A stretch of DNA of 64,000 nt from Raillietiella orientalis (GCA_036172245.1 JAYWIR010000009.1:1-64000), one strand, 5' to 3'; positions 21,989-58,639 are shown, numbered from the stretch's first letter. The notes: generated from the letters alone by a model not told the origin. Translations and numbers: made by a program.

Positions 21989-23181
21989 ACGACAACGCTG
22001 CATTCTTTTTTTTGCTCGCTTGCCTGCTGTTTTTTCTGGCGGTACGCGAGCTTTTTCTCCTTCCTTCTCTCCTTCTTTGATTTTTTGGCCGTAGCCACCT
22101 GCCACCCAGGCTCCTGGCTATTTCCCTCGACTTGTTCGGCGTTGCTCGCCGGTGTCTCGGGTGCGGCCTGGGCCTTGGGCGCGGGTAGCAAGCCTTCCGG
22201 CAAATTTCGCTGCCAGCCTTTTCTGCAGAAGCCGGGCTAGTTATTTAAGGTTTCTCTTGGAAATCACCCGCTCTGTTGCTTTTGGGCACACCTCCCTCGT
22301 GTGGCCCATTGTGCCGCATACTTGGCACTGCACGTTGGGACACCTGTTTTTGAGGTGGCCCGACGAATTGCAGAATCCACAGTATTTCGGCTTCCCCACA
22401 TACCAGAGGTCGACGGTTTTGCCTTCGACCACCAGGTTGTGGGAAGAGTGCAGCCCTCCCGAACGGTCACGCGCGCAGTCGTGAGGCCGTTTTGTAGCTC
22501 CGTGTAGTCCTCGAGAGGACTAAGTTTCGTCCACTGCGCGTGGACCGTTCCAAAGTGTTCTAGAGCGGCGCGAACCTGTTCTTTGCGCATTCGCGTGGTT
22601 ACGCCTAACAGGTGGACCACCATGCTGCGGTCCGCCGTAGTGGGGAGGAGCCTGCGGGTCCCCATCACAACGGGGGTTTTAAGCAGTCGTTGGGCCAGCT
22701 CTGCTTGTTTGCAGATGAACTCAACGTACTGACCCCTGCTGCGGATGATCATAGCGCTGAGCTCCTCCTCTTTAGATCGAGAGCGCGCATGTCCTTTTAG
22801 AAGGCGCGCGCGCTCTCTAAAGAATATCGATTGCCTACCTTGTAGAACAATGAGAGGTTGTAGCCCTCCTCTACATAGGCCGACAATTCCGTCGCGGCTG
22901 TAGGCGATGGCGCCGACACAACGGCGGTCCACGCCCGCGCTGCAGCGGGGACTGATTCTGTGGCGGCGGATGCCCTCACCTCTATCGCCTGTAAGGGCGA
23001 CGTTGCCGCCGCCCCCTGGCTCTCCATCGCATCTGGGGTCGTCGTTGCCGCTGTCCCCTGGCTATCCCTGGTGTTCGCGTCAGGCATCGCTGCCTGATCG
23101 ACCACCGAACCACACGACGCTTGCACTGGGGGAGACTTCCTGGCACGAGGAGCACCGAGAAAACACGTCCACCCTGTAGCA
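21989..23181 (-). mobile_element. Element E, 5' UTR plus ORF1 N-terminal part (same family as I)
   Basis: AARAWTAVVSAPSPTAATELSAYVEEGYN and CCHC x2. 5' CAGGGTGGACGTGTTTT. Confidence 0.85.
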
Positions 23182-24685
23182 CGCAAGGCGCTCGTCTGAG
23201 TGGACCAGGAGCTCCTCCTGGAGCTTCTGCATCGCATGGGCTTCCTTCCTACATTAACGGCGTACCTGCGCTCCTGCTTGCGAGCCGCGTTAACAAACAT
23301 CTGTTTCAGATGGCAGAACGTGTACGGCGTGCCGGTGCGCCGCGGGATTTGGCAGGACGATAGCCTCAGTCCTCTGCTCTTTAGCACCTATTTCGAGTTG
23401 GTGCTGTGAGCATTCAGGATGACTTTTGCTGCCTTGCCATGTTCGTGGTTGGCACGCCTGCCGTGTCCGCATATGCCGACGATCTCCTGCTACTGCACCC
23501 AATGTCCGCTTCGGCAACGGCAGTCGAATATTTGCTCGACCTGCTAAGCCGTGGGACATGGCTACGTGTCAAAAGTGAAAATCGTCGATGGTGACAGTTG
23601 GACGACGTGGGTAGGACGGCCTGACTGGATCCGCCTGGGTATCCCGACTGACAAACTTCTGAAGTATTTTGGCGTTCCGCTGGGGGACTTCTGCCCGTCA
23701 GAAGCATGGTCAGGCTGTCTTCAGAAAGTGGACTTGGCGATCCGCCCGTTCCTGTAGGGGAAGTTCCACTTGCCGAAACGGGCCGCAGTATGGAACGCTT
23801 TTGCGGCTCCCTTCGCGTTCTACTTTTTGTTTGCCACGTTCCTAGAGAAATAAAAAAGAGGACCAAGGACCTCCTGCGCATCGCTCTTTGGGGCAAGGGG
23901 AGGCCCTGACTCCCTTTGATGGACTTGTGCGCTCCTCGTCGTGATGGTGGTTTAGGCCTCCTGCCGCTGGAGCGCATGGAAATTCAGCTGCGATGGCGAA
24001 CCTTGGCCATCGCAGCCAAGCTGTGGAGCACCCCCTGGTGTGTTCTCGCCCACCTCCTCGCTAGACGTGCATCCGGACCGGGAGGAATCGCATCTCTTCT
24101 ATTATGTCGTGGAAGGAAGACAAGAAGTTGCGGCCTTCTCTTCGGACGAGTAGCCACCCTGGCGAGGGAGAATGCTTGGATGATCTGCAGCCCCGTCAAC
24201 TCCAGCGCATGGCTGGATGAAACAGTTGGAACGTAAGCTGTAGTGAATAAGAGGAGCCACGTGACATGGACTAGCCTGCTACGCGGCCGATACGCCTGCT
24301 GCATTCTACGCGAGATCATGGAGTGCTCAGCCAGAAGCACGTGGGCAGAGGCGACTTGCCTGGCGTCGGTGCTACCCTTCCTACGTAGGGCAATCGTCAG
24401 CAGCCGGACGCCGAGGTGGCAGGTCTCTTGCCGTATCGCAGGCAGCGAAAAACTGTTCAGCGGTTGGACAATGGGACAGCTAGCGGACGCTACAACCCAT
24501 TACGTCCTTCCGCAAGGACTAAAAGAATGGGGCGAGCTGCTCGGCATCACGACTGATGAGCTGAAGTGACCCCCAGTAATAACTGAAACCAGTATCCTTC
24601 CCCTCAAATGGCACGATTTTGCGCTGTTGCTGTTGCACTGGGGACTGCCCTGCAATTCATGCCGTCATCACTGAACACGGGGAAG
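23182..24685 (+). mobile_element. Element M, decayed RT C-half fragment
   Basis: Starts at a degenerate RKAFD..VDQELLLEL. GIWQDDSLSP, YADD, KYFG. Ends at LHWGLPCN..HH*TRG. Confidence 0.85.
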
Positions 24686-27602
24686 TTTTCACCCGGTCAC
24701 GCCGGGGAGTTTATTAAAAAACACTTTACATTTGCAGTACTAGGTTCCGCTAAGGCAAATATTTCATGAGACCTGCCAGGAAGCCGGTTCTGAGGCCAGC
24801 TTGTCCTCCTCGGCAGCGGAGGGGATAGGAGGTAAAACAAAAAAGAAAAATAAATGAAATACCAAAAATAAACTATTTGGGGGGCTGGGAAGGGATCACA
24901 ACCCGCTAGAGGAAGAGACTGTTGTTTCCAGGATACCCTCGAGGTACCTCGTCATAGCTCCAAGATGGGACCAGCCAATCGCGATTCGCAGGTAGCGACC
25001 CGCGTGTACGATGAGATCCCTGTCGCTGCTTCCTCTGTTGGCTGCGCTCCAGGCGGCCACAATCCCTCGGAGGCAGCAGAGCGCTGCCAGGGTTAAGGCT
25101 GGTGTCAGGGCGTGTCGCACGAAGAGGAGTCTCACAACGTCTCTGGGGGTACTGCCGAACGGCATAGGGAGGGTCGTAGCATAACGTTCCCACAAGGGCC
25201 GGAGGGCAGCGCAGTCCACTAACAGATGGGGAGGGATTCCTTCTCTCCGCACACTGCACAGTTCTGTCCCACGTTCCCCAACGTCCAGTGGTGGCGGCGC
25301 GCGTTGCAGGGAAGACCCCAGTGCAACAACAACAGCGCCGTTTCCTGCCACTTGAGGGGGAGGGTAGATGCGTCTCTAAATAACGGGGGCCACTCTCGGT
25401 CATCCGCAGGGATGCCCAGCATCTCGCCCCATCTCCGTATTCAATGCGGGTGAACGCTTGGGGTTGCGGCGTCTGCCAGTTCCCTCATTGTCCACCCGCT
25501 TAGATCCTTCTCTTTGCCCGCTATCCGGCAGGAGACTTGCCATCTCGGCTTCCGGCTGTTTTGAAGCGCCCTTCGTAGGAAGGGCAGCGCTGTGGCCAGT
25601 GGGGTCGTCTCCGCCCAAGTGCTTCTGGTGGGACACACGATCATGTTCCGCAGCGTGCAGCGGGTGTAGATGCCGGTCCGCAGGCGGTTGCAGGATTCTC
25701 AACTGATGTGTTTCAAGTTTGCCCACGTTCCAACTGTTTCTTCCAGCCATGCGCTGAAGTTGGCAGGGCTGCAGGCCATCCACCCGTTCTCCTTTCCCAG
25801 GGTAGCCATGCGTCCCAGGAGAAGTCCGCATCTTTTTTTCCGGCCGGGGCACAGAAGAAAAGACGCGAGTCCTTCACTCCCGAACACACATCTGGCGAGA
25901 AGGCGGGCTGGAACGCACCAAGGGGTGTTCCACATTTTCGCTGCGATGGCTAGAGTGCGCCATCGCAGCTGTGTTTCCATTTGCTTCATCGTCAGAACGC
26001 TAAGACCTCCGTCCCAACGTGGAGCGCACAAATCCTTTAAAGGCACACGAGGCCTCCCGCCGCCCCACAGCACGATGCGTAGGAGGTCCTTTGTTCTTTT
26101 TTTCAGTTCACATGGTACAGGGCAAACAAAAAGCAGAGGGCGAAGGAGGGCCGCGAACGCGTTCCACACCGCGGCCCGTTCCGGCAAGTGAAGCTTGCCT
26201 CCCAGGAACGGACCGATCGTTGACTCCACTTTTTGGAGACGACCTGATCAGGCTTCTGACTGACAGAAGTCTCCCAACGGAACGCCGAGGTACTTTAAGT
26301 AGCTGTCCGTGGGGATCCCCATGCGGATCCAATCAGGTCGTCCTGCCCACGTAGCACCAACCGCAATCAGCGATGACTTCGTCCTGTTCACCTGTAGTCC
26401 TGTCCCACGGCTCAACAAGTCGAAGAAATCTTCGACTGCCGAAGCCGAGGCGGACAAGGGCAGCAGGAGCAAAAGATCGTCAGCGTACGCCGACACGGCC
26501 GGCGTACCTGGACACGAGCTTTCCAAAGCAGCCAATGTCACCATGTATGCTCTCAGCACCAGTTCGAAATAGGTGCTGAAGAGTAGGGGACTCAGGCTGT
26601 CGCCCTGCCGGATGCCGCGCCTCACCGGTACGCCGAACACATGCTGTCCTCTGAAAAATACGTTAATGATCGCATTGCGCCATCAGGCGCGCAGGTAACC
26701 CAGTAAAGTGTCCGGAAAGCCCATGCGATCCAGGAGTTCCAGAAGAAGTTCCTCGTCCACGCAATTGAACGCTTTGTGCAGATCGAATGCGATCGCTAAA
26801 CCCCCTTCCCTTCCCGGCATGCCCTTGTTTGCCGCGCTGGCGTTCCCAAATTAGATTTGTCGTCATTTTGTTCTTTTTTCTTCTCTTTTTCTTCGTACTG
26901 TAGATTGAACCATGTGCTGGCGAAGAACAGGTTCGCTTCCATGCTTCGCACGGGAACAACGTACGTCTGTTCCGGGCTGACGAAGCTGTCAGCTACATGT
27001 CCCAGTCGCGCAGCCCACAGTGCGACCAGCAGCTTGGCGTCCGTGATCACTATCGTGATCGGACGCCAGTTGCTTAATTTTCTGAGGTCTGCTCCCTTAG
27101 GGAGGAGCCTCACCCTGGTTGAGCGAAACGAGGAAGGAACATCGCCTTGGTCTCGGATCAACGATGTCAGTTTGAGTACCAGGGGGGTCAGCCCTGCGAC
27201 AAAGCACTGAAACAACTCCGCCGGCAGGCCGTCCTCCCCTGACGCCTTTTGAGATTTTAATCGCGGTGATGATTTCCCCGGTCGTAAAAGGCTCGTCGAG
27301 GCTTTCTTTCTCCTCCTCATCTATGGCCGGGGCTCCATCTGGAAGCAGGCGCCGCGAAGCGTCCCACTCCGCAGGTGCCCTTGCGTATAGACAGGAGTAA
27401 AATCCGCGCACGAGGCGACGCGTCGAAGCAGGCTCCGAGTGTTCCTGGTCCAAATCGTCCAGCACGCTAGTCGGTCCGGTTTGCCATGCTTGACGCTCGG
27501 CCCTGGCTTTGTATTCCGCCAAGCGACGGACGTCAGGGGTATTTGCGAAACGACGGGCGTGCAAATACGCCCTTTTGTTGCGAGCTCCTTCTCCAAATCC
27601 CC
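24686..27602 (-). mobile_element. Element G, 3' half (linker, RT, zf-RVT, 3' UTR), decayed
   Basis: Starts at GFGEGARN. RT motifs in ORFs 26796-27320 and 26248-26640. 3' AATAAACTCCCCGGCGTGACCGGGTGAAAA. Confidence 0.9.
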
Positions 27603-29990
27603 TCTGTGGAGAGAGGACGTGCTTTTCCTGCGCTCCGCCTGCGTAGCAAGGCGAGTGGTATTTTGCTGAGTGGTTTGTGCGTGCACATCGTCGGTGTCCG
27701 ATGGCAGCGTTGCCAGAGGAAACCGCGATGGAAGTAGGCGTGAGGGAGGCTTGTTCGTCCCCACAGCCTACTGGATCAGGGGCATCCGCCCCGGAATCGT
27801 CCCCTGCAACGCCGAGGTCATGGAGCGCCATGGTGGCCGCGCCTAGCGTGGAAGCGATGGCCGAGATGGAAGCCTACAAGAAAGCGGGGTATTAACCCTC
27901 GCTAGTCTACAAGGTAGGCAGCCTTTTTGATGGGCGAACTGCACGCGCCTTTAAGAAGGCGCTGCACAACGCCACTATCTTCGAAAAAGATCTCGACGGC
28001 CTCTCCGTCCTCAGCGGCGGGCAGCGGGTCGAGGTGGTATACAAAGATATCCCCTTGGCCCGACGCCTGATCACCGATCCGCTGATCGTTGATGGTCGGA
28101 AGATCTTGCCGGTGACGACGGACCGCTCGGTGGTGGTCCATCTCACTGGGATCTCCAGTCGCATGACTAGGTCAACGGCTCGTGAACAGTTGCAAAAGCA
28201 CCCAGAACTGCACGCGTTGTGGCCGAAGTCCACGATTTTCCAAGGCTACAATAGCCTTTTCGGAGGTCAAGCTGCGGCGCGTATCACCGTAAAAGAGAGT
28301 GGTGCGCTTCCCCACAAGCTGGAGGTCAGCCAAAAAGCGGTGGACCTCTGGTACGTGGGGAAAAGCCAATTTTATGGCTACTGCAATGCAGTAGGGCATC
28401 TACGAAAAAGGTGCCCGAAAATTGTGTGCCACCTATGCGGCGAAAAAGGTCACGTTCGGCGCGTGTGCCCCAAGCGCATCACCCCGGTGCCCCCTGCCGC
28501 CAAAAAGGCTCAGGGAAAACGTGGAAAGCTGATAGAAAGACCAGCTCGCGAAAATGGCCGTTCCCAACTGCCAGCCTCCCTTCCTTTCGTAGAGACGTCG
28601 GAGGAAAAAGCTCCCTTGAACGCGGAAATGGAAGAGGGTTGGCAGCTGGTTCAGGCCAGAAAAGAAAAAAATAAAAGGAAAGTGATGCCAGAAGAAAAGT
28701 CGAAGAAGAAAACTGCCGGCAACAAGAAAAAAGCCGCGCCGCTTCCAAAAAAAAAACAACTCCGCGAATGCTCGGTGGCACTAGAACGCTAAGCCGTTCC
28801 TGCCGAGGCCACCCGCGGCAATGTTCAGCAAACAGCTGATACGGACGCGATGAATACTCGCGTGGACGAGCCCATTCTACGTTTAGAGGGTGAGACGCGA
28901 GACTCGCGCGCCGACAGCCAGGACGCCGCGCTCGATAAAGTCGCGGAGGAGCCCGCGGCAACGGTCGCTGCTGGCGAAGACGCGGCCTTCCAGAAAGCGG
29001 CGGAGGAGCTCCCAGCAACACTCGCCGAGCGCGAAACCCCGTCGCGCAAGGGCGCACGCAGGTGAGCTCCGACGAAGAAGGCCCCCGCAGGTGAGTGCGA
29101 CCTGGGGGCCGGAAGCGGATCCTCCTCCTCGGAGGCACCCCCAAGGAAGTCGGGACGCAAGTCCCAGAAACCCAGGAGGAGCCTCCCCTCCACCAGCGAG
29201 GAGGAGAAGCCGGAACGAAGCGGCAGCGTGGGAATCACGGAGGGGGAACACCCACGCCCGGAAGCCGTCGAGTCGGCCACCCCCATGGAGGAGGGTGAGC
29301 ACGGGGGTGAAGTCCTCCCTGCAGTAGCGACACCTGAGCTGCCCGAACCCATGGAGGAGGGCGAACAGGTAGGCGCGACTCCACCTGCGGGTGATCCGGC
29401 CGACGCGGCGGCACCGATGGAGGAGGAAGAACAGGTGCCTCCAGTACCTGTCCCCCCTTCCCCTCCACCTAGGGTCCCGCCCCAGCATGCGGCGGACGCC
29501 TCATCGCCGTTTTCCCAGGACTAACACCTGGGCTCGCCAGTCGCCGTCGGATTCGCGCGGCCCTTGGAACGTCAACGGGCTGCGCGACGACGGCAACAGG
29601 CGAGATACGGCCGACAACCTGCCTGAGCTCGACCTGGTGCTGCTGCAGGAGATCCACGTGATCACCGCGGCAGACGCCAGGGAGATCGAGGCGATCGCGG
29701 GGGGTCGGTTGTATTGGCGATGCGGCCTCCGCAACACCTGCAGGGTGGCGTTCTTCGTGAAGCCGGCCATCGACGCTGCCGTAAAGGGCGTGCGGTTTGA
29801 TGACGACGATCGGATCGGTCAGCTGATTCTCAGCTGGTCCGATTCGATCGAACTGATCGTCACGAATGTGTACGCCCCAACCGGTGAAAAGAGATAGAGC
29901 AACAGTACCAGGTTGCTTGAATCCCTCAAGCGCGACTGGCTGGCCAACACGAACGTGCGCAAGCCTCACCTGATAGCGGGAGATTTCAAT
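27603..29990 (+). mobile_element. Family B copy 2, 5' part (5' UTR, ORF1, APE up to GDFN)
   Basis: GGACGTG at 27615. ORF1 knuckles in ORF 28034-28792. WNVNGL, LQEIH. TAG at 29895-29897. Confidence 0.88.
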
Positions 29991-32900
29991 CGAGTGCGGA
30001 CGTGTTTTTCTTCGCTCTCGTCTCCGTGCTTTCATCCGCTTCATCTTGCCGTCGTATATTTTGACGACGATGTCGACCCAACTAGAAGCTACTGAAGTTG
30101 GATGAACAGCATTCGGATCTGTAATCGCGGAACCGACGGCCGCCTCCACTTCGTCTTTCTCGCCAATAGAGAGGAGTTTTGCTGACGTTGCTGCCACAGC
30201 AGCCGTCAAAGGGAAACCACTCGACGAGTCGGAGTTGCGGGCATACGTAGCCCAAGGCTATAGACCTGCTCTCCGATAAAAGGTGAGTGGTTTTCTTTCT
30301 GCGCGCGACGGGAATCAGTTCAACGATGAACTGACCCGTGTTGGCGTGCCGGAGGAGGACCTTCTCGCCATTATGCCCGTAAAAGACATGGGCTATATCA
30401 AGTTGCGTTGCAAAGACGCTGCACTTGTGCAACGCTTGCAGCGCACCCCGTTGTCGATCCGTGGACAGAAGGTCTTCCCGGCCGCCATGGACGACTCATT
30501 TGTGGTGGAGATTTTCGACATCGAGTCGGAAATCTCCGATACTGATATTCGGAACGCGTTGGCGAAATTCGCCACGGTCCATGCGCTGTGGAGGGTGCGT
30601 AGCAACCTCAAGGACTTCCCGTCCATACACAGCGGAGTCGCTGGAGTCCGGCTTACAATGCCGGACCGCCGTCTGCTGCCCACGAAACTACAGGTGAAAG
30701 ACAGGGTCGTTCACCTGTGGTTCGTGGGCAAAGTAAAAACCTGCGAGCAATGCGGGAAGGAGGGGCATTGTTTGGATCAATGCCCCTCTGGAAAATGCCG
30801 TTATTGCAAACTATCCGGGCACCAATTGAAAAATTGCCCGGAACTTTTGCGAAAAAAGGCAGCCGCGGAGCTTCATTTTAAAAAACAAAGCGTGGATGAA
30901 AAGAAAAAATCTGCGAAAAACCTGGAGACCCCACGGCAGAAATTCGGTAAAAACGCGAGGCGGAATGTCGCCCCAAAGCAGCAGGAAACCACGCACGCGA
31001 AGCCCTCCGCACCCCCTCTCGCGGCAGGGGAGCCGCAAAAGAAAGGGTGCGGGGAATCCGGGGCAATGGTAAGTCCCCCTATGCGCAATAGCAGTCCTTC
31101 CCAAGCACGCCCGGCTCTCTCGGAGATCAAGCAACCCACGGGGACGTCAATGGACAACGGCGGTAAGGACACTTCCAGTACCGTCAGATCCATTCCTTCA
31201 CCTCCTGCAGTGGCTGAGAAGCCCAAATCGGGTAAGAAGGGTTGTGCCGTTTCGACTTCGAAAGTCGGCAAAAAAAAATCCGCGTCGCGATCCAACACCG
31301 CGAAAGCGGAGAAAAATCTCACGCCGTCGAAGTCGGAGAGCAAGCTCTCGACTGGCGCGGATGCCATGCCAACGAAGGGATTAAAAGCCCTTCCGAAAGC
31401 AGCGTCCATGACGAGCGTGTCGGAGCCATCGAAAGTGCTCCCGTCCAAATACGCGGATGGCTTCAAAGATGGCCATGGAGCACAATCTCCATTTACGGCG
31501 CCACGCGAAGTGAGGAACCATAATGAAGTAAAGAAGACTTCAGCAAAGGTCCCTCGTGCAACTGCGCGTGAGCACTCTGAAAACGCGCGCGCCGGGAAAG
31601 CAGCCGTCACCAAAAGCGATGCTCTGGTGACGGAAAACGAAAACAGGACAGCTGTCAATCTAGCAGAACCTGTCACTGCTTCGCAGAAGGCGGAAACCCG
31701 ATCGAACATGCGCCGGTCGGACTCCGAAATGGATGCCGTTCCGATCACCGAGACGAGGACAACTCGCTCGAAAGCGTGTGCGCGCCGATCAAAAGTAGGC
31801 AGCCAGGCAACGCTCGCCGCGAAGCAACGCGAAGTCTCCACGAAACCCGACGGGGTTCAGCCTGGCGTGGAGGCATTACATGCATGAAGCACGACAGAGC
31901 ACGGTGGCGACCGTCCCCTCCAGCCAGTCGTGCTGCTCGCCGTCTGCTCGCCGGATAAAGCGAGCAAAAAGCTGCCACCTTCCCAGCAGTAATGCGGGGA
32001 ATCGCGTCTTCTCGTCGTCTGTCCGTAACGTGTTGGAACGTGAACGGTCTGCACAACGACGAGAAGAGGCGATTAGTAGCCAACGCCCTGCGCCCCTTCG
32101 ACCTCGCGCTGCTGCAGGAGATTCACGTAATCTCCGACGAGCAGGCAGCCGAAATCGAGGAGCGCGCAGGCGGAACGCTACATTGGCGGTGCGGCGGCGC
32201 ACACACGTGCGGCGTCGCGTTCCTCGTAAAAGGAAAAATGGCGGAAGCGGTGCGTAGTGTTCGTTTCGATGACAACGGACGGATAGGCCTGCTTGTCATC
32301 AAGTGGTCCGAGTCCATCGATCTCGTCGTTACGAACGTCTACGCGCAGATTGGCTCTCGCTACCTCGAAGAAAGAGTAGCTTTCTTTCGTGAGGTGCAGA
32401 GCCAGTGGCTCAACAACTCCGGCTTCCAAGTGGCGCACCTCGTCGCTGGGGACTTCAACGTCCGCCTGCTCTCCGACGATTGGAGCCGCCCGAGGGAGCG
32501 CGCGCTGCCCATCGAGATGTGCGCGTCCGTGCACGCCGCCAGCTTGATGGTCAGCGGACCTGGAATGGAAAGATCGCTCGATCACGTTTTCCTCGATGAA
32601 AACCTGCATTCGCGTGTGGGTAGGAGAGGAAGATTGTTGACTAGGCTTTCTGACCACCAGAGGTTAAAGTTTGAGATCCTTCCGCCAGGCAGGGGGCCTC
32701 CGTTGCAAAACTGGAGGATGCAGGCGGATTGGCTTAGCCACCCGGAGGCTGCGAAGCATCTACGTGGATACCTCCGAGGCTTTGCCATTCAATAACTTGC
32801 GGACTGGGACGATCTCAAAAGATCTGTCCGCGAGTTCTGCTGCCAATTCCCCGTGCACCGGCTTCCACGCGGTTTTGGAGAGGGTGTGGCCAACAGTAGA

Positions 32901-35895
32901 GACTTTCTGCAGGCCCGCACGTGTTCGAGACGCGCCTATGTCGGGCGTCTGGCAGAGTACAAGGCGAGGTCCGAGCACCAGGTCTGGCAGTCCGGAGCAG
33001 CATGCCTGTTGGACGACAAGGGCCAGGAATGTTCGGCCCCAGCCGAAGTACGCCGCATTGTGAGACGCTATCACTCCTCTCTGTACGCGGAATCCCCGAC
33101 GAAGGATATTCTTTCTGAGATACTCCTGTCTCAGGATGCTCGTGTTGTCGGCGAAGAGGAACGCGAACGTCTCGACGAGCCCTTCACGGCGGATGAATTT
33201 TCGTCCGCCATCGCTGGGCTGAAGAGACGAAAGGCGCCAGGCGAGGATGGGCTCCCTGCAGAGTTTTATCAGTGCTTTGCAGTGGAGCTCATTCCCTTGA
33301 TGCTGAAACTCGCGACGCTGATGAGTGAATCCGGGAATGTCCCGGATTCCTTCCGCTCAGCGAAGGTGCGTCCCCTGCCGAAAGGCGGAGACTTGCGCCA
33401 ACTTAACAACTGGCGTCCGAGCACCTTGGTGAACTCGGACGTCAGGTTGTTTTCCAAGCTGTGGGTCGCGCGGTTAGGAAGAATCGCGGAATCTGTGGTG
33501 AGCCCGGAACAAACCTACGCGGTTCCGGGACGATCCATGCAGGCGAACATCCTTTTCGCGCGTACATGGATGCAGCTGCAGGAAGTTCTGGCGCAGCAAA
33601 GCCAGGCTTCTGCGAAAGTCACTGCCGCAGGCAAAAAGAACAGGCGCCGACGGCAGGAGGGAACGCCAGGTGCCTTGGCGGTCGCGGTCGATCTCCACAA
33701 GGCGTTCGACTGCGTAAACCAGAAGCTGCTTTTGGAGCTTATGGAACGCCTTGGGTTCCCGGCGCAACTCCTGCTGTATTTGCGCGCGTGCTGGCGCCAC
33801 GCGCTAACCTGGATCACTTTTAGCGGCTGCCGCGTGTATGGTATTCCCGTTCGTAGGGGCATCCGACAGGGCGATAGCTTAAGCCCGTTGCTCTTCAGCA
33901 TCTTCTTTGAGTTGGTGCTAAGAGCATACAGGCTGACGCTGTCTCACTTGCCAAGCTCCTGCCCGGGAACGCCTGCCGTGGCCGCCTACGCTGATGACCT
34001 GCTTCTTCTGCCCCCCATGTCCACCCCGGCGTCCAGTGTCGAGGATTTCTTCGACCTGATTCGTGGGGGAGCGGGCGTGAGCTTGAACAGAGAGAAGAGC
34101 GTGGTCGTTCCTGTGGGTACGTCGTGGGAGGGGCAGTCCGACTGGATCCGCCTGAAAAACCCCACGGGCGGGTACTTTAAGTACCTTGGTGTTCCGTTGG
34201 GCGCTTTCGACGCAGCCGAAGCGTGGGCGGACTGTCTTCAGAAAGCAGAGTTGGCCATCAGCCCGTTCTTTAACGGCAAGTTTACCTTGCAGGAACGGGC
34301 GACTATTTGGAACACCTTTGTGGCCCCCCTCCTCCGTCCCCTGTTTTTTGTTTTGGACACCCCCTGTGCGGCAAAACAGCGGGCTAAGCGCCTGCTCAGG
34401 AACGCTCTCTGGGGTCCGGCGAGATCCAGGATCCGCCTTAAATATTTGTCAGCTCCGCGTCGGGATGCTGGTTTGGGTATCCTGACAATGGAGCGAATCG
34501 GACTGCAGGTGCAGTTCCGACTGCTGGCACGGTGTGCCCAGCTATGGACATCCCCCCTGTGTGTACCAGCTCGCATTCTCCTGCGGAGATGCGCCGGCAG
34601 CGGAGGATTTCTCTCGCTTTTGCCTGGCACTCAATACAGGAAGCGGGGTTTCGGTTTTCCATTGCGGCAGTTGACCGCACTTCTGGAAGCACACTCTTGG
34701 ATCTCCTGCCGCCCAATGAACTTCGAAGCTTGGCGGCAGCAGTCTGTTGAATCCTGGGCGGCGTTCCAAGGAATACGCCCTGAAGATCTTCGCCCCCTGC
34801 GCCAATTTTTTCCACGATCCTTGGAAGTACTGCAGGACGAGGTGAAGTTTTCTACCCTGGCTGCCACGCCTCTTGCCGCAGCGCTGTCTGCCCTCAGGGC
34901 AAGAAACGACAGTTACCAACCGGCGAGGTGGGAGGTTTCCTGCACGATAGCGGGAAGAACCAAACTCCTTGGCACCTGGAAGACAAGTGAGTTGGCGGAC
35001 GCCGCCCCTCCTCGTGTTACTGCAAAGGGACTCCTCCGGTGGGCAGAAGAACTTGCTGTCACCCCCGAAGAACTTGTAGTCCCTCCACAGTGTATGGACA
35101 GTTCGCTGCTCCCCCTTGCTTGGAAACAAGCCGTGCTGCTTTTCGTTCACTGGGGTTTTCAGTGCAACGAGCGTTGGCATCGTGACTCCGGGGGACTTGC
35201 GTCTGCAAACTGCGTTCGATGCGGATCGACGGAGTCGATTCCGCACCTACTTCTGGACTGCGGTGTCCTACAAGGACTCTGGCGTAGGCTGGCAACGGCA
35301 CTATTGCATCCCGTGGACACCGCAAGAGACTTGCTGCGACGATTCTTCACGCCGAGCGGGCTTTCACTAAGCGCAAGGATTGCAACCATCGGTTGCATAC
35401 GCGCGATAGTTTCCGTCCGCCAGGCGTTGGTAATCAACGGACAGCACCAAGAGGTAATCAGCAAAGCATCCTTCTACATGGGAGCATCCGCTACATGGCC
35501 TCATTTGACAGAGGAGACAAAGAGGAATCTCGCCGCAATACACCGCCGGTTTACACACCCTCATCAGCGGCCAACCCGGTGATCATTGCCCTACCCTCCA
35601 TAAACTAAATTTGTATTTTCTTTTTACACCCGCGTCCACATAGGCTCCGGAACATTTTAGGTGCTCATCGTATAAATCCCCGTGAGTACGGAGCCTAACC
35701 AAAAACCCGTTACCCTTCCCTCCAGTTTTTGATTTTTGTTTGTTTCCCCTCATTCCCCCGACGCTGCGAGCGGTTTGTTTACCAGGCCTGCGTGCCGGTA
35801 ATTTTTCTATGTTCTCTGTCGTTCTCTTGGTTGGGGACATTGTCCCTGACCAGTTTATTATTATTAATAAACGCCCCGGCGTGACCGGGTGATAA
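29991..35895 (+). mobile_element. Element A2, full length
   Basis: ATTTCAAT at 29983-29990 and 35896-35903. Near-identical to A1. 3' hairpin 35866-35892. Confidence 0.93.
31992..35582 (+). pseudogene. A2 ORF2 (~1196 codons, single premature TAA at 32793-32795); best template for the family protein
   Basis: ORFs 31992-32795 and 32853-35582 are in the same frame. All APE, RT and zf-RVT motifs present. Confidence 0.92.
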
Positions 35896-35903
35896 ATTTC
35901 AAT

Positions 35904-38900
35904 CGAGTGCGGACGTGTTTTTCTTCGCTCTCGTCTCCGTGCTTTCATCCGCTTCATCTTGGCGTCGTATATTTTGACGACGATGTCGACCCAACCCGAA
36001 GCTACTCAAGTTGGAGGAACAGCATCCGGATCTGCAATCGCGGAACCGACGGCCGTCTCCACTTCGTCTTTCACGCCAATGGAGAGGAGTTTTGCTGACG
36101 TTGCTGCCACAAAAGCCGTCAAAGGGAAACCACTCGACGAGTCGGAGTTGCGGGCATACGTAGCCCAAGTCTAAGGACCTGCTCTCCGATATAAGGTGAG
36201 TGGTTTTCTTTCTGCGCGCGACGGGAATCAGTTCTACGATGAACTGAACCGTGTTGGCGTGCGGGAGGAGGACCTCCTCGCCATTATGCATGTAAAGGAT
36301 ATGGGCTATTTCAAGGTGCGTTGCAAAGACGCTGCACTTGTGCAACGCTTGCTGCGCACACCGTTGTCGATCCGTGGCCAGAAGGTCTTCCCGGCCGCCA
36401 TGGACGACTCATTTGTGGCGGAGATTTTCGACATCGAGTCCGAAATCTCCGATATTGATATTCGGGACGCGTTGGCGAAATTCGCCACGGTCCATGCGCT
36501 GTAAAGTGTGCGTAGGAGCCTCAAGGACTTCCCGTCCATACACAGCAGAGTCGCTGGAGTCCGGCTTACAATGCCGGACCGCCGTCTGCTGCCCACCAAA
36601 CTACAGGTGAAAGAAACGGTCGTTCACCTGCGGTTCGTGGGCACAGTAAGAACGTGCGAGCATTGCGGGAAGGAGGTGCATTGTTTGGATAAATGCCCCT
36701 CTGGAAAATGCCGTTATTGCAAACTATCCGGGCACCAATTGAAAAATTGCCCCGATCTTTTGCGAAAAAAGGCAGCCGCGGAGCATCATCTTGAGAAACA
36801 AATCGCGGAGAAAAAGAAAAAATCTGCGAATAACCTGGAGACCCCACGGCAGAAATTCCGAAAAAACGCGAGGCAGTATGTCGCCCCAAAGCAGCAGGAA
36901 ACCTCGCAAGCGAAGTCCTGCGCGCCCGCTCTCGCGGCAGGGGAGCCGCAAAAGAAAGGGTGCAGGGAATCCGGGGCAATGGTAAGTCCCCCTAGGCGCA
37001 ATAGCTGTCCTTCCCAAGCACGCCCGGCTCTTTCGGAGTTCGAGCAACCCGCGGGGACGTCAATGGACAACGGCGGTAAGGACACTTCCAGTACCGTCAG
37101 ATCCATTTCTTCACCTCCTGCAGTGGCTGAGAAGCCCAAATCGGGTAAGAAGGGTTGTGCCGTGTCGACTTCGAAAGCCGGCAAAAAAAAATCCGCGTCG
37201 CGATCCAACACCGCGAAAGCGGAGAAAAATCTCACGCCGTCGCAGTCGGAGAGCAAGCTCTCGACTGGCGCGGATGCCATGCCAACGAAGGGATTAAAAG
37301 CCCTTCCGAAAGCAGCGTCCATGACGAGCGTGTCGGCGCCATCGAAAGTGCTCCCGTCCAAAGACGCGGATGGCTTCAAAGATGGCCATGGAGCACAATC
37401 TCCATTTACGGCGCCACGCGAAGTGAGGAACCGTAATGAAGTAAAGAAGACTTCAGCAAAGGTCCCTCATGCAACTGCGCGTCAGCAGGCTGAAAACGCG
37501 CGCGCCGGGAAAGCAGCCGTCACCAAAAGCGATGCTCTGGTGACGGAAAACGAAAACAGGACAGCTGTCAATCCAGCAGCACCTGTCACTGCTTCGCGGA
37601 AGGCGGAAACCCGATCGAACATGCGCCGGTCGGACTCCGAAATGGATGCCGTTCCGATCACCGAGACGAGGACAACTCGTTCGAAAGCGTGTGCGCGCCG
37701 ATCAAAAGTAGGCAGTCAGGCAACGCTAGCCGCGAGGCCACGCGAAGTCTCCACGAAACCCGACGGGGTTAAGCTTGGCGTGGAGGCATTACATGCATGC
37801 AGCACGACAGAGGACGGTGGCGACCGTCCCCTCCAGCCAGTCGTGCTTCTCGCCGTCTGCTCGCCGGATAAAGCGAGCAAAAAGCAGCCACCTTCCCAGC
37901 AGTAATGCGGGGAATCGCGTCTAATCGCGAGAAGAGGCGATTAGTAGCCAACCCTCTGCGCCCCTTCGACCTCGCGCTCCTGCAGGAGATTCACGTAATC
38001 TCCGACGAGCAGGCACCCGAAATCGAGGAGCGCGCAGGCGGAACGCTACATTGGCGGTGCGGCGGCGCACACACGTGCGGCGTCGCGTTCCCCGTAAAAG
38101 GAAAGTTGGCGGAAGCGGTGCGTAGTGTTCTTTTCGATGACGACGGACGGATAGGCCTGCTTGTCATCAAGTGGTCCGAGTCCATCGATCTTGTCGTTAC
38201 GAACGTCTACGCGCCGAGTAGCTCTCGCTATCTCGAAGAAAGAGTAGCCTTCTTTGGTGACGTGCTGAGCCACTGGCTCAAGAACTCCGGTTTCCAAGTG
38301 GCGCACCTCGTCGCTGGGGACTTCAACGTCCGCCTGCTCTCCGACGATTGGAGCCGCGCGAGGGAGCGCGCGCTGCCCATCGAGATGTGCGCGTCCGTGC
38401 ACGCCGCCAACTTGATGGTCAGCGAACCTGGAATGGGAAGATCGCTCGATCACGTTTTCTTCGATGAAAACCTGCATTTGCGTGTGGGTAGGAGAGGAAG
38501 ATTGTTGACTAGACTTTCTGACCACCACAGGTTGGAGTTTGAGATCCTTCCGCCAGGCAGGGGGCCTCCGTTGCAAAGCTGGAGGATGCAGGCGGATTGG
38601 CTTAGCCAACCGGAGGCTGCGGAGCATCTACGTGGATACCTCCTGGGCTTTGCCATTCAAGAACTTGCGGACTGGGACGATCTCAAAAGATCTGTCCGCG
38701 AGTTCTGTTGCCAATTCCCCTTGCACCGGCTTCCACGCGGTTTCGGAGAGGGCGTGGCCAACAGTAGAGACTTTCTGCAGGCGCGCACGTTTTCGAGACG
38801 CGCGGATGTCGGGCGTCTCGCAGAGTACAAGGCGAGGGCCGAGCGCCAGGTCTGGCAGTCCGGAGCAGCATGCCTGTTGGACGACAAGGGCCAGGAATGT

Positions 38901-39577
38901 TCGGCCCCAGGCGAAGTACGCCGCATTGTGAGACGCTACTACTCCTCGCTCTACGCGGAATCCCCGACGGAGGATATTCTTTCTGAGATACTCCTGTCTC
39001 AGGATGCTCGTGTTGTCGGCGAGGAGGAACGCGAACGTCTCGAAGAGCCCTTCACGGCGGATAAATTTTCGTCCGCTATCGCTGGGCTGAAAAGACGAAA
39101 GGCGCCAGGCGAGGATGGGCTCCCTGCAGAGTTTTATCAGTGCTTTGAAGTGGAGCTCATTCCCTTGATGCTGAAACTCGCGACGCTGATGAGTGAATCC
39201 GGGAATGTCCCGGATTCCTTCCGCTCAGCGAAGGTGCGTCTCCTGCCGAAAGGCGGAGACTTGCGCCATCTTAACAACTGGCGTCCGATCACCTTGGTGA
39301 ACTCGGAAGTCAAGTTGTTTTCCAAGCTGTGGGTCGCGCGGTTAGGAAGTATCGCGGAATCGGTGGTGAGCCCGGAACAAACCTACGCGGTTCCGGGACG
39401 ATCCATGGAGGCGAACATCCTTTTCGCGCGTACATGGATGCAGCTGCAGGAAGTTGTGGCGAAGGAAAGCCAGGCTGCTGCGAAAGTCACTGCCGCAGGC
39501 AAAAAGAACAGGCGCCGACGGCAGGAGGGAACGCCAGGTGCCTTGGCGGTCGCGGTCGATCTCCACAAGGCGTTCGA
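35904..39577 (+). mobile_element. Element A3, 5' part, tandem with A2, cut at DLHKAFD
   Basis: Same 5' end CGAGTGCGGACGTG. ORF1 36508-37905. ORF2 from 37905 has lost the WNVNGL segment. Confidence 0.9.
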
Positions 39578-41698
39578 TTTTCACCCGGATTTCTCCGAGT
39601 CGTTTATTAAAAAAATAAACTTTGTAAACAAATTATTAATGGCTGTGGCAATGCTCCAGCCAGAAGCTAAGAACCGCGGCGCCTGCCAATTCACCGGTTT
39701 TTAGACCGGTACGGTCCACCAAGGCAGCAGGGGAAAGGGGAAAAACAAAAAAAACTAAACAAACAAAAAAAAAAAAAAACAAAGGGTGGGAGGGAACGGG
39801 AAGGGATCACTGTTGCCGCTGGGGCCGCATCAACCCTCTCAGGATGCTGGCAAGCTCTTGTTTGTTGTGAACATCCAGGTGGGACCATCGCGACGCCCTC
39901 CTCAGGAATTCGGAGGCGCACTGGATGGCTTCCTGATCGCTACGTCCTCCCGTTGCCGTGCTCCAGGCGGCGACGATCCCAGGAAGGCAGCACAAGGCTG
40001 CTATCGATGACGCTGGCCGCACAGCGTCGGCAACGAAGAAGGCTTTTAGTGTGTCTTTGGGGTTGCCGCAAGGGATACCGATGGCCGCGGCAAAGCGGAA
40101 CCAAAGGGGCCGAAGGGCAACACAATCCACTAGGAGGTGGGGGAGGGACTCCCGTTCCCCGCACCTTACACAATTGGGATCCACCGCTCCCCAGGTCCAG
40201 TGGTGTCGACGGGCGTTGCAGGGGAGTCCCCAGTGCTGCAACAAAAATGCCGACTCTTGCCATTTTAGGGGGAGGATGGAAGTGTTCATAAGAATCGGGG
40301 GCCAGTTCAGATGTTCAATCGGAACATCCTTCAGCGCTACCCAGCGCAGAAGTCCATTAGGAGGCGTACTCGGGGTCTCAGCATCAGTTAGCTGGCCCAT
40401 CTTCCACTCTCTCTGCTTCTTCTCCTTCCTGGAGATTTTTATTGTAACCTACCACTTCGCCGCAACATCGCTGTCCTGATATTCCACTAGGGAGTCCAGC
40501 GCAGCAGAGAGGGCGGTTCTTCCTCACCACGCTCTCTTCTTAGGATCCTCCAGGATCTCACGGAGCGTGCAACTTCTGTAACACCCAACCAGGAACCTTC
40601 GTTCCTGATGGGAGGGTTGCATGCCGAACTGTCCCAACGTACGAACGGTTTCCTGCAACCAGGCACTACCGTTCGTGGGGAGACAGGTGATCCATCCTTG
40701 ATTTTTCCTTGCCAGCGCAGCCACCCTCCGTAGCTGAAGCCCACATCGGTTGATGCGGCTTCGATGGAGTGCAAGAAACGACGTAAGTCCCGTCTTGCCG
40801 GTGGCTTGCTGAAGGAGGAGACGTGCAGGGACGCACCAACAGGTGCACCACAACTCCGGCACAAGTGCCAAACTCCGGAACTGGAGCTACTGCTCCAGCC
40901 GCTCCAATGTCAGGAGGCCGAGATCACCGTCCTTACGTGCAGCGCACAAGTCTTTGAGCCTCACACGGGACCTCCCTTTGCCCCAAAGGACTGTCCTCAG
41001 GAGGCCCGCTGCTCGTTTCGGAATAAAATACGGGGCGGGGCAAACAAGTAGTAGGGGGCGAAGGAGGGGAGCCGCAAACGCGTTCCACACAGCGGCCTGT
41101 TCCTGCAAGTAGAACTTGCCTTCTTGGAACGGAACGATCGCCAACGCTGCCTTTTGGAGACGGTCGGACCAGGCTTCTGCTCCGCAGAAGTCCCCCAAAG
41201 GTACGCCGAGGTAGTGAAGCACCTGCCCGTGGGGATCCCCAAGCGGATCCACTCCAACCGTCCAGCCCACGCCGAACCGACGAAGACCATGGACGACTTC
41301 GCCCTGTTCACCTCCAGGCCCGTCCCGCGGCGCAGCAACTCGAAGAATTCCTCGAGCGCACTCGCCGGGGTGGACCCGGGAAGCAGCAGCAGAAGATCGT
41401 CTGCATAGGCCGACACGGCAGGCGTGCCGGCACACGAGATCGGCAGGGTTGCCAGAGTTACCCTGTGTGCTCCCAGCACCACCTCGAAGTAGATGATGAA
41501 GAGTAAGGGGCTCAGGCTGTCACCCTGCCGGATACCGCGGCGGACTGGCACGCCGTACACGTGGCGGCCGCTGCAACCAATATTAATTGACGCGTTGCGT
41601 TAGCAGGAGCGCAGGTAGGACTGGAGCTCGGCCGGGAAACCCATGCGTTGCAGGAGCTCCAAAAGCAGTTCCTGTTCGACACAGTCGAAAGCTTTACG
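39578..41698 (-). mobile_element. Element H, 3' half (from KAFD to the 3' end)
   Basis: RQGDSLSP, YADD, zf-RVT ORF 39807-40400. 3' AATAAACGACTCGGAGAAATCCGGGTGAAAA. Confidence 0.88.
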
Positions 41699-44600
41699 TC
41701 GGCTAGTGCGGACGTGTTTCCTGGGTGCTCCTGGTGCCGGGAACCGTCCCTAGGTGTAGGCTTCGTGTGTGGTGGTGGTCGATCAGGCAGCAATGCCTGA
41801 CGCGACCACCAGTACGTGTCAGGGGGCGGTGGCAACGTCGCCTCCTGAAGAAATGGAGTGCCAGGTGGCGGCGGCAACGTCGCCTCTAGAGAAGGTGGTG
41901 TGCCAGGGGGCGGCGGCAACGTCGCCTTCAGTGGCGAAGGAGGTGGGGGCGTTCGCCCTCACAAAACCGGTCCCCGCTGCAGCGCGGGCGGGGAGCGCCG
42001 TCGTGTCGGCGCCATCGCCTACAGCCGCGGCGGAATTATCTGCCCATGTGGAAGAGGGGTATAACCCATCACTATTCTACAAGGTAGGAAATTTGTATTC
42101 TGCTGAGAGTGCGCGCGCCTTTTCGAAGGGGATGCGCGCTCTCGATGTTAAAGAAGAGGAGCTCTGCGCTATGACCATTCGTAGCGGGGGGCAGTACGTA
42201 GAGGTGATCTGCAAACATGCAGATCTGGCCCAACGTCTGCTTAAAACCCCCGTGGTAATGGGGACACGCAGGCTCCTTCCCGTTACGGCGGACCACAGTA
42301 TGGTGGTCCACCTTTTAGGAGTTACCGCGCGGATGCGGAAAGAACAGTTACGCGCCGCGTTGGGAAAAGAAGGCACGGTCCATGCAGTATGGACCAAGCC
42401 TAGTCCTTTCGAGGACTATACCACTGTTCAGTGCGGCCTCACGGCTGCCCGTGTAACCGTTCGGAAGGGCTCTACCCTTCCCCACAAACTGGTAGTCGAC
42501 GGAGAAAGCGTCGACCTCTGGTACGTGGGGAAGCCCAAATACTGTGGCTTCTGCAACACGTCGGGACACCTCAAAAGGAGGTGCCCCAACGTACAGTGCC
42601 TGGTATGCGGGACAATGGGCCACACGAAGGAAGTGTGTCCACAATCCGCTGTGCGCGTGGTTTCCGCGAGGAACCTAAAAAAAAGCGCGCGGTTGCTTCA
42701 GAAAAAACTGGCGGCGAAGGCTGCCGCTCAAGCTGTGCCACCCACTCCCGTGGTCCAGGCCTCAGCCGACACCCCGGCAACGAATGCCGAAAAGATTGAC
42801 AAAAGCGGTCAGGTGTTGGAATAGCAAGAAGTCACAGCGAAAAAGAAAAAAAAGTCGAAGAAAGAACGACGAATCGAAAAAAAGCTCGCCTACCAAAATA
42901 AAAAACAGCAGGTTAGCGAGAATTTAAAAGAATGTAGCGTCGTCGTGGAACGCGTCCCCGCCGAACGCCGCAAGGTAGAAATCGCTGCTACCGACGAGCA
43001 ACCCACTGTTGAAAATGTCAACAGCGTGGGGAGCGAACCGGCGGAAGCGTCCATCATCGAGACCGTGATCGATGACGCCGCCTTCGAGCGTGCGGCGGAG
43101 GAGCTGGCTGCATCGTTGCAGCCAGACCCGTCCAAGGCTGGCAAAAATGCAGTGAGGCGTTCGGCCTCCACCGAGGAGTCGGTAACTTCCGACCCCGAAG
43201 CGCAGGCCGGAAACCAAGTTTCCATCACCGCGGCACCCCGCCGGAAGGCTGGAAGGAAATCCAGCAAACCCCGGAAAGCCCCTCTCCAGGTCGAAGGCGT
43301 GGAGATCACTTCCGACTGCGAGGGTGCCATGAGCGTGGGAGAATCCCGGGAGTCGTCACCCGAGAGACCACCACGCACAGACACGGAGGAGATGGAGGGG
43401 GTTGAAGCCGGAAAGGTACCCAAGGTGCCTGAGGAGGCTGAAACCCTAATGGTCATCTCACCCGCCTCGGAAGAGGCGGGTTCCCCCACACCGTCATCTT
43501 TCCGGCAGTAATGCCGCGAATCTCCTCCCGCAGTCCTCTGCGCATCGCCGTTTGGAACGTGAACGGCATGACAGACGCCGGCAGGAGACGAGACATGGCC
43601 GCCATTCTAGGATCGTTCGACCTTGTGCTGCTGCAGGAGATCCATGTGATCTCTGCAGAACAAGCGCAGGAGATCGAACGCATCTACGGAGGGCGGCTGT
43701 GGTATCGGTGTGGAACATCGAGAAGCTGTGGTGTCGCTTACCTGCTTCGGTCCGCCATCGAGGCCGCCGCCCGTGGAATTCGGTTCGACGATCACGGTCG
43801 TGTCGGCCAGCTGACTCTCAGCTGGTCCGACTCGATCGACCTGATCGTTATGAACGTTTACGCCCCGAGCGGAGCCGACCTGACGAACAGGAGGGCCAGG
43901 AAAGAATTTTTACTTGCACTCCATAGCGACTGGTTGACCGAGGCAGGCGTGCGGAATGCCCATCTGGTTGCAGGCGATTTTAACGTTCGTCTGAAACCGG
44001 ATGGGCCGAATCACGAGCGTGACCTCGTCAACGAGGTGTGCGCGGCGGTGCACACTTGTAATTTGTTGGCCAGTGTACCAGGGATGGAGGACAACATCGA
44101 TCACGTGTTCCTTGACGAGCACCTGTGCACTCGTGTGGGCAGGCCCTGCAAGATGCCGTGCGAGTTGACTGACCATCGACCAATCGTGATTGAAATCCAT
44201 CCGCGCGACAGGGGCCCCCCCTCGTCAGCGTGGCGTTTGCCAGGGGACTGGCTGAAGCTCCCGGACGCGACGGAACATCTCCGCACGTTTACACGGAGCT
44301 TTAGGATGCAGACACTTCAGGATTGGGACAGCTTTAAACGGTCGGTCCAGGAGTTCTGGGACCAGTTCCCTCTGCACCGCCTACCTGCGGGATTTGGGGA
44401 CGGGGTACGTAACGAACGAGCCTATCTGCAGGCTCGCCGTTACGCCAGGACCCCCGACATCCGCAGGCTGGCGGAATACAAAGCGGGAGCCGAGAGGCAA
44501 GCCTGGCAGTCAGGATCGGCCAGCTTGCTGGACGATCAGGGCCAGGAGCATTCGGCACCCGCTCAGATCCGCGGTCTGCTGCGGCGTTTTTACTCCTCCC

Positions 44601-45246
44601 TGTACGCAAGAACGCCTCCCGAGCGGGATTTCTCACGAATCCTGCTTCCGATAGGCGCACCTGCGATCGGGGAAGAGGAGAAAAAGTCTCTCGACGAGTC
44701 TTTCACGATGGGCGAGATCATCTCTACCATCGGAAAGCTCAAGAGGCGAAAGGCTCCAGGGGAGGACGGCCTGTCCGCGGAGTTTTATCAAAATTTCGCG
44801 GCTGAACTAACCCCTCTGGTACATCAACTCACCTTGCTGATACGCGAGACAGGTGACGTTCCCGCCTCGTTTCGTTCGGCAAAGGTGCGGCTTCTCCCTA
44901 AGGGAGGAGATCTGAGGAGCATGAACTACTGGCGTCCCATCACAATAGTGAATGCGGATGCCAAGTTGATAGCTAAGGTTTCGGCTGAGCGTCTGGGACG
45001 GGTTGCAAACGCCTTCACCAGCCCGGAACAGACGTATGCTGTTCCGGGGCGAAGCATGGAGGCGAACCTGTTCCACGCTTCCACCTGGCTAGAGCTCCAA
45101 CACGAAAGGGGCTTGATGCGCACCGGGAATTCCGGTGAGTCTGTCAGTCATGCGACGGATGGTCGGATGGGGGAAGGAGTACTTGCGGTCGCTGTCGACT
45201 TGCGTAAAGCATTCGACAGCGTCGACCAGAATCTCCTGCTGGAGCT
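41699..45246 (+). mobile_element. Element I, 5' part (ORF1, APE, RT N-half)
   Basis: GGACGTG at 41710. ORF1 41793-43511 with one stop at 42822. TAATG overlap. ORF2 open to DLRKAFDSVDQNLLLEL. Confidence 0.9.
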
Positions 45247-45252
45247 TCGACT

Positions 45253-49601: not shown

Positions 49602-49616
49602 TAACGCCCAATCCCC

Positions 49617-58625: not shown

Positions 58626-58639
58626 AACTCCTGTTCGCC

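Follow-up and report, generated by a model that had tools for sequence, protein, structure and literature searches.

Why do the complete ends of several retrotransposon copies lie against the same few codons of other retrotransposons? This question is raised by a 64,000-nucleotide (nt) stretch of DNA from Raillietiella orientalis (GCA_036172245.1, JAYWIR010000009.1:1-64000), hereafter "the window", meaning the whole stretch analyzed. Window bases 1-59,700 are occupied by a dense nest of GC-rich (55-62%) retrotransposons lacking long terminal repeats (non-LTR), with around 13 interruptions in 60 kb, and the DNA beyond the nest is AT-rich (40% GC) and non-coding. Around 20 fragments of roughly ten families, denoted here by letters, were resolved by tblastn and self-blastn, the second open reading frame (ORF2) of copy A2 (31959-35582, 1207 amino acids, aa) serving as the ruler for coordinates along ORF2; this ruler was collinear across all the families. 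The reading that we favor, to which we assign a probability of about 0.72, is that the E/I-type elements and the owner of the 3' end of fragment H3 are site-specific long interspersed nuclear elements (LINEs) with an apurinic/apyrimidinic-type endonuclease (APE), which insert antisense into the (H/R)KAFD codons of motif A in the reverse transcriptase (RT) of other families of the same clade. Other coding sites are used in a like manner, family A entering the motif GDFN and family B/C the motif GFGE of other families.

Junctions at motif A of the reverse transcriptase

Inspection of the sequence at all three junctions located them exactly where the original prediction had placed the 5' ends of E and I and the 3' end of H. 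On the plus strand, the E/M junction (23181/23182) reads ...GTCCACCCTGTAGCA / CGCAAGGCGCTCG; to its left lies the reverse complement of the E 5' end (TGCTACAGGGT+GGACGTGTTTT), and to its right the RT fragment M, which begins CGC AAG GCG and reads R-K-A-L-V*-V-D-Q-E-L-L-L-E-L. At the H3/I junction (41698/41699; ...GTCGAAAGCTTTACG / TCGGCTAGTGC+GGACGTGTTTC), antisense H3, beginning CGT AAA GCT TTC GAC and reading (R)KAFDCVEQELLLELL, is followed by the 5' end of I. At the A3/H3 junction (39577/39578; ...GATCTCCACAAGGCGTTCGA / TTTTCACCCGGATTTCTCCGAGTCGTTTATT), copy A3 (DLHKAFD, ...CAC AAG GCG TTC GA) is followed by the reverse complement of the H3 3' end, composed of AATAAA, a stem-loop (CTCGGA/TCCGGG), GTG and AAAA, and adjoining A3 after ...AAGGCGTTCGA. 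The presumed target sequence in motif A is GATCTCCACAAGGCGTTCGACTGCG. The 5' ends of E and I meet the same host nucleotide, at the H/R codon preceding KAFD, both of them antisense, in hosts M and H3, respectively. This type of 5' end starts GGACGTGTTTYCT..., and the equal spacing that had been noticed is real, GGACGTG lying 11 nt from the host in both copies, with 11-nt spacers that are partly alike (GCTA..G). Both 5' ends point to the C-terminal part of the host and the 3' end to its N-terminal part, and the geometry of all three junctions fits one antisense insertion site.

The ends found at these junctions are those of the whole nest. All the families have in common a 5' end of 6-12 variable nt followed by GGACGTG(T/C)TTT, and a 3' end made up of AATAAA, a stem-loop of five pairs (CCCGG...CCGGG), GTG and an A-rich tail of 4 nt; poly(A) is absent. 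In 11 of 11 3' ends the stem-loop is kept, and no compensatory changes were found among them. The 5' architecture of the motif A elements recurs at the tandem junctions of B1 and H1, and the termini are therefore genuine. At the three joints such complete termini are joined to an oppositely oriented host, and no sequence is shared across them. Regarding the proteins, Exo_endo_phos (APE) and RVT_1 are both present in ORF2 of H1, A3 and I (Pfam; in I the APE domain lies within 43442-45247), which is the architecture of APE-type LINEs. The zf-RVT matches are weak (21-24 bits, under the cutoff of 27.5); zf-CCHC scores 21.3 bits in H1 ORF1 (cutoff 20.8), I ORF1 gives a weak AIR2-like match only, and CCHC knuckles are visible by eye in E ORF1.

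E and I do form one family, as had been proposed from their ORF1: they are around 80% identical over some 1.19 kb of 5' untranslated region (UTR) and ORF1 and are each other's closest relatives, all other families aligning to them over at most 141 nt. Their hosts are more distant. Over the first 660 nt from motif A, M and H3 are 71% identical; over +660 to +1460 they are 55% identical, and there M is around 72% identical to C1, C2 and D3; family A is 66-70% identical to M and to H3. Because M, H3 and A are distinct lineages, E/M and I/H3 are separate events rather than copies, and the three separate events in three host lineages of the original prediction (E into M, I into an H3-type element, the H3-type element into A3) hold. 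The Arg codon (CGY) that precedes KAFD in M (23182), H3 (41698), I (45203) and P0001, a protein fragment from a metagenome, was also considered as a marker of lineage; most families have His (CAC) there, and the marker was dropped, given that CGC and CAC differ by one CpG transition.

The following mechanism would account for such junctions. The endonuclease of the element, as the probable determinant of specificity, would nick the sense strand of the host after ...AAGGCGTTCGA, and the freed 3'-OH would prime reverse transcription, starting in the A-rich tail that follows the conserved stem-loop of the 3' end. A second cut, in the opposite strand, would fall 8-14 bp away, beside the H/R codon. 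A full-length copy would end flush with the H/R codon, because the opposite-strand cut adjoins that codon, and would be flanked by a short target duplication.

One event has both of its flanks in the window. Positions 45253-45552 are A3's own continuation (291 of 295 aligned nt identical to A2, the two parts of A3 being 96-99% identical to A2), and 39578-45252 is therefore a single insert in A3, formed by H3 (minus strand) and the 5' 3.5 kb of I (plus strand). This continuation at 45253 is new with respect to the original prediction, as is the use of other motifs by the sister families. The most fitting account of the insert is that an H3-type element, with I previously lodged in its motif A, was copied as one RNA and 5'-truncated inside I: I would have entered motif A of an H3-type element, and the composite RNA would then have been reverse-transcribed from the H3 3' end into motif A of A3, with truncation near I's own motif A. 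Two sequential insertions plus a deletion ending 6 nt inside the duplication would be a less simple history and require a coincidence; under either history the integrations at motif A are three (E/M, I/H3-type, H3-type/A3).

A target duplication of about 14 bp had been proposed. That length is compatible with the 8-bp flanks of the A3 insert, which fit a stagger of at least 8 bp (12-14 bp being possible), and was seen in no single event: the figure was pieced together from different events, the full-length E/I ends lying 6 bp beyond the 8-bp copy. A 14-bp duplication, across events and perhaps across families, is plausible but unproven, and a stagger of 12-14 bp would go with it; the CG of the CGY codon may belong to the element instead of the host, in which case the duplication would be of 12 bp and not 14 bp.

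Considering the 12 RT copies in which the motif A region is present or at the break point, motif A is intact in eight (A1, A2, C1, B1, F, H1, D3, I) and broken within around 17 bp in four (M, H3, A3, C2). At the last of these breaks, ATTTCCAT could be either a remnant of the family A duplication (ATTTCAATC) or a mutated ATCTCCAC of motif A. Independent copies do use the same target nucleotide, in a sample that is small: two of two E/I 5' ends, one H3-type 3' end 14 bp away, and two host junctions of family A. The suggestion that this target is hard to escape by mutation holds less tightly than was put forward. The 14-nt KAFD window ranks 317 of 3520 for cross-family nucleotide conservation (top 9%) and is not the conservation peak. 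The 14 bp span H/R-K-A-F and two bases of the second Asp, and the metal-binding Asp of motif A is presumably the D of V-D-L, two codons upstream. Table 1 collects the coordinates.

Table 1. Positions of the elements, target sites and duplications discussed (whole-window numbering)
Feature	Position	Strand	Description
E	21989-23181	-	5'UTR and degenerate ORF1 (CCHC knuckles); complete 5' end at 23181; interrupted at 21989 by the family F (A-like2) 3' end
M (host RT fragment)	23182-24685	+	From R-K-A of motif A to ~aa 1075 of the ruler; interrupted at its 3' side by the antisense D3 3' end
A3 N-part	35905-39577	+	5' end, ORF1, ORF2 to ...CAC AAG GCG TTC GA; tandem behind A2
Left duplication copy	39570-39577	+	GCGTTCGA (8 bp)
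H3	39578-41698	-	RT, starting at the motif A R codon and reaching the 3' end; AAAA tail at 39581-39578
I	41699-45247	+	Complete 5' end, ORF1, ORF2 APE; breaks off 45 nt past the R codon
I, own motif A	45197-45217		Intact, DLRKAFD
Filler	45248-45252	+	CGACT, 5 nt; truncated (I) end of the insert
Right duplication copy	45253-45260	+	GCGTTCGA; start of A3 C-part
A3 C-part	45253-45552	+	Then in-register switch at ~45553 to G (45553-47465)
ATTTC	47466-47470		With the G 3' end, directly before C2
C2 RT fragment	47471-49604	+	Begins CAT AAG GCG TTC GAC, same codon as M and H3
Unoccupied target in A2	33696-33709	+	CACAAGGCGTTCGA; A2 intact
Other intact target, A1	3860-3873
Other intact target, C1	7300-7313
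Other intact target, B1	53191-53204
A1	160-6061		Plus strand; sense in C1 at GDFN; ATTTCAATC at 151-159 and 6062-6070
B/C array (B2 ... C2, B1)			Plus strand; 27.7 kb, antisense in D at RLPWGFGE; CCAAATCCCC at 27593-27602 and 55297-55306

Recurrent sites of the sister families

Motif A is not the only coding motif that is entered repeatedly in the nest. Family A inserts in sense orientation at the APE motif GDFN (GGA GAT TTC AAT) with a 9-bp duplication: besides A1 in C1 (Table 1), A2 sits at the same GDFN place in B2, A3 follows A2, parted from it only by the 9-mer ATTTCAATC, and B1 retains an empty GDFN site at 52051. The B/C family inserts antisense at RLP(W/T)GFGE of two D lineages (D1 and D2/D3) with a 10-bp duplication, and its host junctions are three in two host families, namely C1 into D1 (9394-9402) and the B2 5' end and B1 3' end in D3/D2. 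H1 and H2 have a different target, in sense orientation in the ORF1-end region of a D element. Head-to-tail pairs (A2-A3, 35896-35904; C2-B1, 49601-49616; H2-H1, 16355-16379) have only the tail and the target duplication between them, an arrangement known too from the arrays that other site-specific LINEs form. Within the nest there is also an open frame of 877 aa (16635-19268, minus strand), in which the N-terminal 193 aa of a D-type ORF1 are fused to the C-part of the H2 RT (from aa 673), marking the 5'-truncation joint of the H2-H1 tandem insertion. Single cases are the D3 3' end antisense in the C-terminal zinc-finger region of M (24686), the F 3' end antisense in E ORF1 (21988), and the Dx 5' end antisense in F at around aa 372. 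Broadly, the features expected of LINE insertion are found, with duplications of 9, 10 and 8 bp present in both copies, and 5'-truncated or interrupted copies that include H2 and the A3 composite.

A broader interpretation, for which we would give even odds, is that at least four related LINE lineages form a guild whose members home into each other's conserved coding motifs, each endonuclease having been retuned to a different motif, with a single founder copy in ordinary AT-rich DNA and growth in the manner of a Russian doll. It may just as well be true as not that the sites of this guild comprise KAFD (antisense), GDFN (sense), GFGE (antisense), the ORF1-end site and the C-terminal zinc-finger site. 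Its elements could, with the same evenly balanced confidence, at once seek safe havens and put competitors out of action, and perhaps also set off gene conversion from one family to another.

From outer to inner, the nesting order is M > E > F > Dx > C1 > A1. Between the D2 5' end and the AT-rich DNA, in around 1 kb (58634-59680), coding homology to any of the families was not found; the sole recognizable feature of this segment is a degenerate AATAAACGCTCCGGGC near 59643, a decayed AATAAA-hairpin, and the segment may be the eroded 3' end of M, the outermost element. Just outside the nest lies a tandem repeat array (60079-60311; periods of 19, 21 and 49 bp; unit ATCACAGACCTATAGGGATGA). Further along, a short ORF (62766-62996, plus strand) encodes ...FDFQTRWTANYGM..., which may resemble the N-terminal region of domesticated hAT/ZBED-like animal proteins, a hint of an animal host.

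Competing histories of the motif A junctions

The junctions at E/M and I/H3 could be diverged copies of each other: an E/I element would have entered an RT once, long ago, and the resulting composite would have multiplied through retrotransposition in trans or duplication. In favor of this, the H3+I unit seems itself to have entered A3 undivided, gene conversion occurs commonly among these elements, and the segments 22996-23814 and 41884-41064 align in blastn, through both junctions, with 73% identity. Against it, E and I are some 80% identical, whereas M and H3 reach only 71%, and 55% further 3', in the region where M agrees at around 72% with C1, C2 and D3. Furthermore, the 94% block of H3 is shared with H1, a copy that is unbroken through motif A, and the site was hit once more at the A3/H3 junction, where a separate duplication was made. 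We consider this history improbable.

A slightly smaller likelihood is given to an artefact of homology boundaries. Cross-family conservation begins at motif A, after a variable linker, and recombination, conversion, template switching or mis-joins would fall there, in-register switches at this place needing no endonuclease. Most cross-family blastn alignments do start at motif A, and exchanges between families are evident. A block of 841 bp is 98% identical between B1 (53171-54011, plus strand) and D3 (26798-25961, minus strand), with 14 mismatches and one gap; it is inverted, begins around 23 nt ahead of the motif A K codon and has flanks of around 73% identity, a pattern suggestive of recent gene conversion between B1 and the element in which it sits. 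H1 and H3 share a similar block of high identity (around 94%). Over 300 nt the C-part of A3 matches A2 at 98-100% identity; at 45553 the sequence changes, in register, to that of family G, 65% identical, which may reflect a recombinant or recombination between two A-type insertions; host C is without aa 168-582 between the A3/G 3' end and C2, and the joint between I and the A3 C-part lies at near-homologous positions. Nonetheless, homologous exchange or a mis-join at a shared k-mer yields joints that are in register and in the same orientation, and in-register switches do not explain the three antisense joints, where complete termini meet an oppositely oriented host without shared sequence; an 8-bp direct duplication also flanks the A3 insert.

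It had been suggested that H is the 3' half of the E/I family, and that I therefore hit its own kind; neither suggestion is supported. Measured from motif A, H3 is 82% identical to H1 over nt 0-120, around 94% over nt 120-780 and around 55% over the remainder, and because its identity to H1 varies in this way H3 is a mosaic. The stretch of around 94% identity is 40925-41600, and no other family in the window resembles the 3' 1.3 kb. The 5' half of H1 is in turn unlike E/I: its 5'UTR and ORF1 cannot be aligned with those of E/I, and the N-part of its ORF2 is 63-66% identical to I. The E/I 3' half lies outside the window. Over their sole overlap, of 45 nt, I and H3 agree at 35 of 45 positions, no closer than I and the unrelated families (31-37 of 45). 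The owner of the H3 3' end uses the same site as E/I, and may share the E/I machinery.

The same overlap decides on twin priming, a mechanism known from L1 inversions, by which I (5', inverted) and H3 (3') would be the halves of one RNA inserted in A3, and I/H3 an inversion joint. Internal priming would come from the KAFD strand of the target itself, on the KAFD region of the element, and H3 would in that case really be the 3' half of I. We hold this to be about as doubtful as a homology-boundary artefact. Seen in H3 orientation, the layout is that of the known product (an inverted internal-to-5' segment, then a sense internal-to-3' segment), the two segments overlap by 45 nt at motif A, and homology exists between the target and the internal point. 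Halves of one RNA should be nearly identical in their overlap, and twin priming was rejected on the 35/45 found. It would also leave the identical E/M joint without explanation, M having its likely end in AT-rich DNA and not in motif A, and the two parts of A3 are 96-99% identical to A2. Finally, that these are meaningless coincidences in a random nested graveyard is scarcely credible, for although the nest is dense and at least three of 13 random breaks in 5.8 kb would fall within 20 bp with P ~0.010, at least four would do so with P ~1.3e-4, the two E/I 5' ends alone, taken as an a-priori pair, would share host nucleotide and strand with P ~8.6e-5, and two more recurrent sites, GDFN and GFGE, come with duplications.

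Several points nevertheless weigh against site-specific insertion at motif A. The evidence base is one 64-kb window plus fragments of a sequencing run, X1 (0.21 of sampled words), which was compared with 22001-42000 at 85% likeness and contains related copies. Within the window, no complete E/I copy is present, the E/I family being represented by two 5' ends and the H3 type by one 3' end; the 3' junctions of E and I themselves, which would show their first-nick site, are absent from it. Eight of the 12 motif A sites are unoccupied, and a 14-bp duplication is seen in no event, the insert with both flanks having 8 bp and a filler. Frequent recombination and gene conversion between families weakens arguments from lineage, and composites can move as units, so that copies of a junction are not always independent. 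Among the X1 matches listed, nothing was found for 23181, 39577 or 41699, and two contigs give the A 3' end another flank. Three further contigs among these matches continue the A 3' end with TCCGCCTGCTAAC..., a GDFN-host flank unlike that of the window. One X1 contig spans 29965-33716, starting at the A 5' end and stopping 7 nt beyond the break site, and is suggestive only. X1 depth is low over 36008-40009, on which no interpretation is put.

Relation to known elements and biological significance

Domain architecture and best matches hint that the elements may belong to the L1/Tx1 side of LINEs, a placement made by matches and not by a tree. The closest protein to A ORF2 is P0001 (56% identity, 619 aa, with an intact DLRKAFD), the others reaching at most 28%; the best named match is a Danio "pol-like protein" (28%), and the Atlas clusters that come closest are RVT_1+zf-RVT families, in which Chordata is the commonest taxon. 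P0001 is nearest to I on its N side (68%) and to C1 and H1 on its C side (66%), giving no link between I and H3, and I ORF2 had no close match among longer proteins. The shared 3' hairpin pattern was found in 0 metagenome contigs and 0 viral contigs; its sole match in genome contigs, on a bacterial protein-coding contig, was read as chance. An alignment of five RT sequences gave a single locus of 27% identity in metagenome contigs, which was uninformative. As judged from these sequence comparisons, the clade appears to be almost unseen outside the window.

Sequence-specific targets are described for other LINEs with APE and RT, above all in the Tx1 clade (Tx1L of Xenopus laevis in Tx1D; Keno, Kibi, Koshi). 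Tx1 targets a DNA transposon and other elements of its clade target small nuclear RNA genes and microsatellites (PMC4494074), Tx1 itself being aimed at another transposon (PMC4640811). In the window, by contrast, autonomous LINEs are entered at protein-coding motifs by others of their own clade, and each of several families has a motif to itself. Nested insertion, clusters and tandem arrays are likewise described for Zepp/ZeppL, L1-clade elements of green algae, which target their own existing copies (PMC8226300). Their self-targeting is described without a defined motif, and their arrays as mostly of 3' ends (PMC8226300); in the window the sites are nucleotide-defined, lie in other families and are frequently entered antisense, and full-length 5' ends are numerous. 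The elements of the window also have the stem-loop and the 4-nt A-rich tail, no poly(A), and several complete 5' ends. Zepp, on the other hand, has a poly(A) tail.

The R1 endonuclease, also of the APE type, cuts both strands of a fixed multicopy target (PMC1919474). R1-clade LINEs of ribosomal DNA (rDNA) and repeats resemble those of the window in their precise 5' ends, absence of long poly(A), tandem copies and short fixed duplication. The R1 duplication is of 14 bp. The target there is a host rRNA gene and not a mobile element, and the likeness is one of features alone. Homing endonucleases and mobile introns, which sit in codons for conserved catalytic residues, follow the same logic, aiming at sequence kept constant by selection on the function of the target; their machinery is unrelated, and the "host gene" in the window is itself a selfish element.

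The known targets of site-specific LINEs comprise rDNA, telomeric repeats, small RNA genes, microsatellites and one DNA transposon. A LINE aimed at the RT or APE motif of another LINE was not found in the open full-text literature, much of the relevant literature being subscription-only and supplements lying outside the scope of the search. Homing of related LINE families into each other's conserved coding motifs is thus probably a new habit. If true, a clade aiming at the codons of LINE catalytic domains would be a clear case of transposons parasitizing and disabling transposons, and would explain how dense LINE islands form without harm to host genes. It would furthermore offer a naturally occurring set of APE endonucleases, each with a known DNA target of its own, that could serve to study and re-engineer the target choice of LINEs, and it would predict an arms race readable in the synonymous sites of RT motifs.

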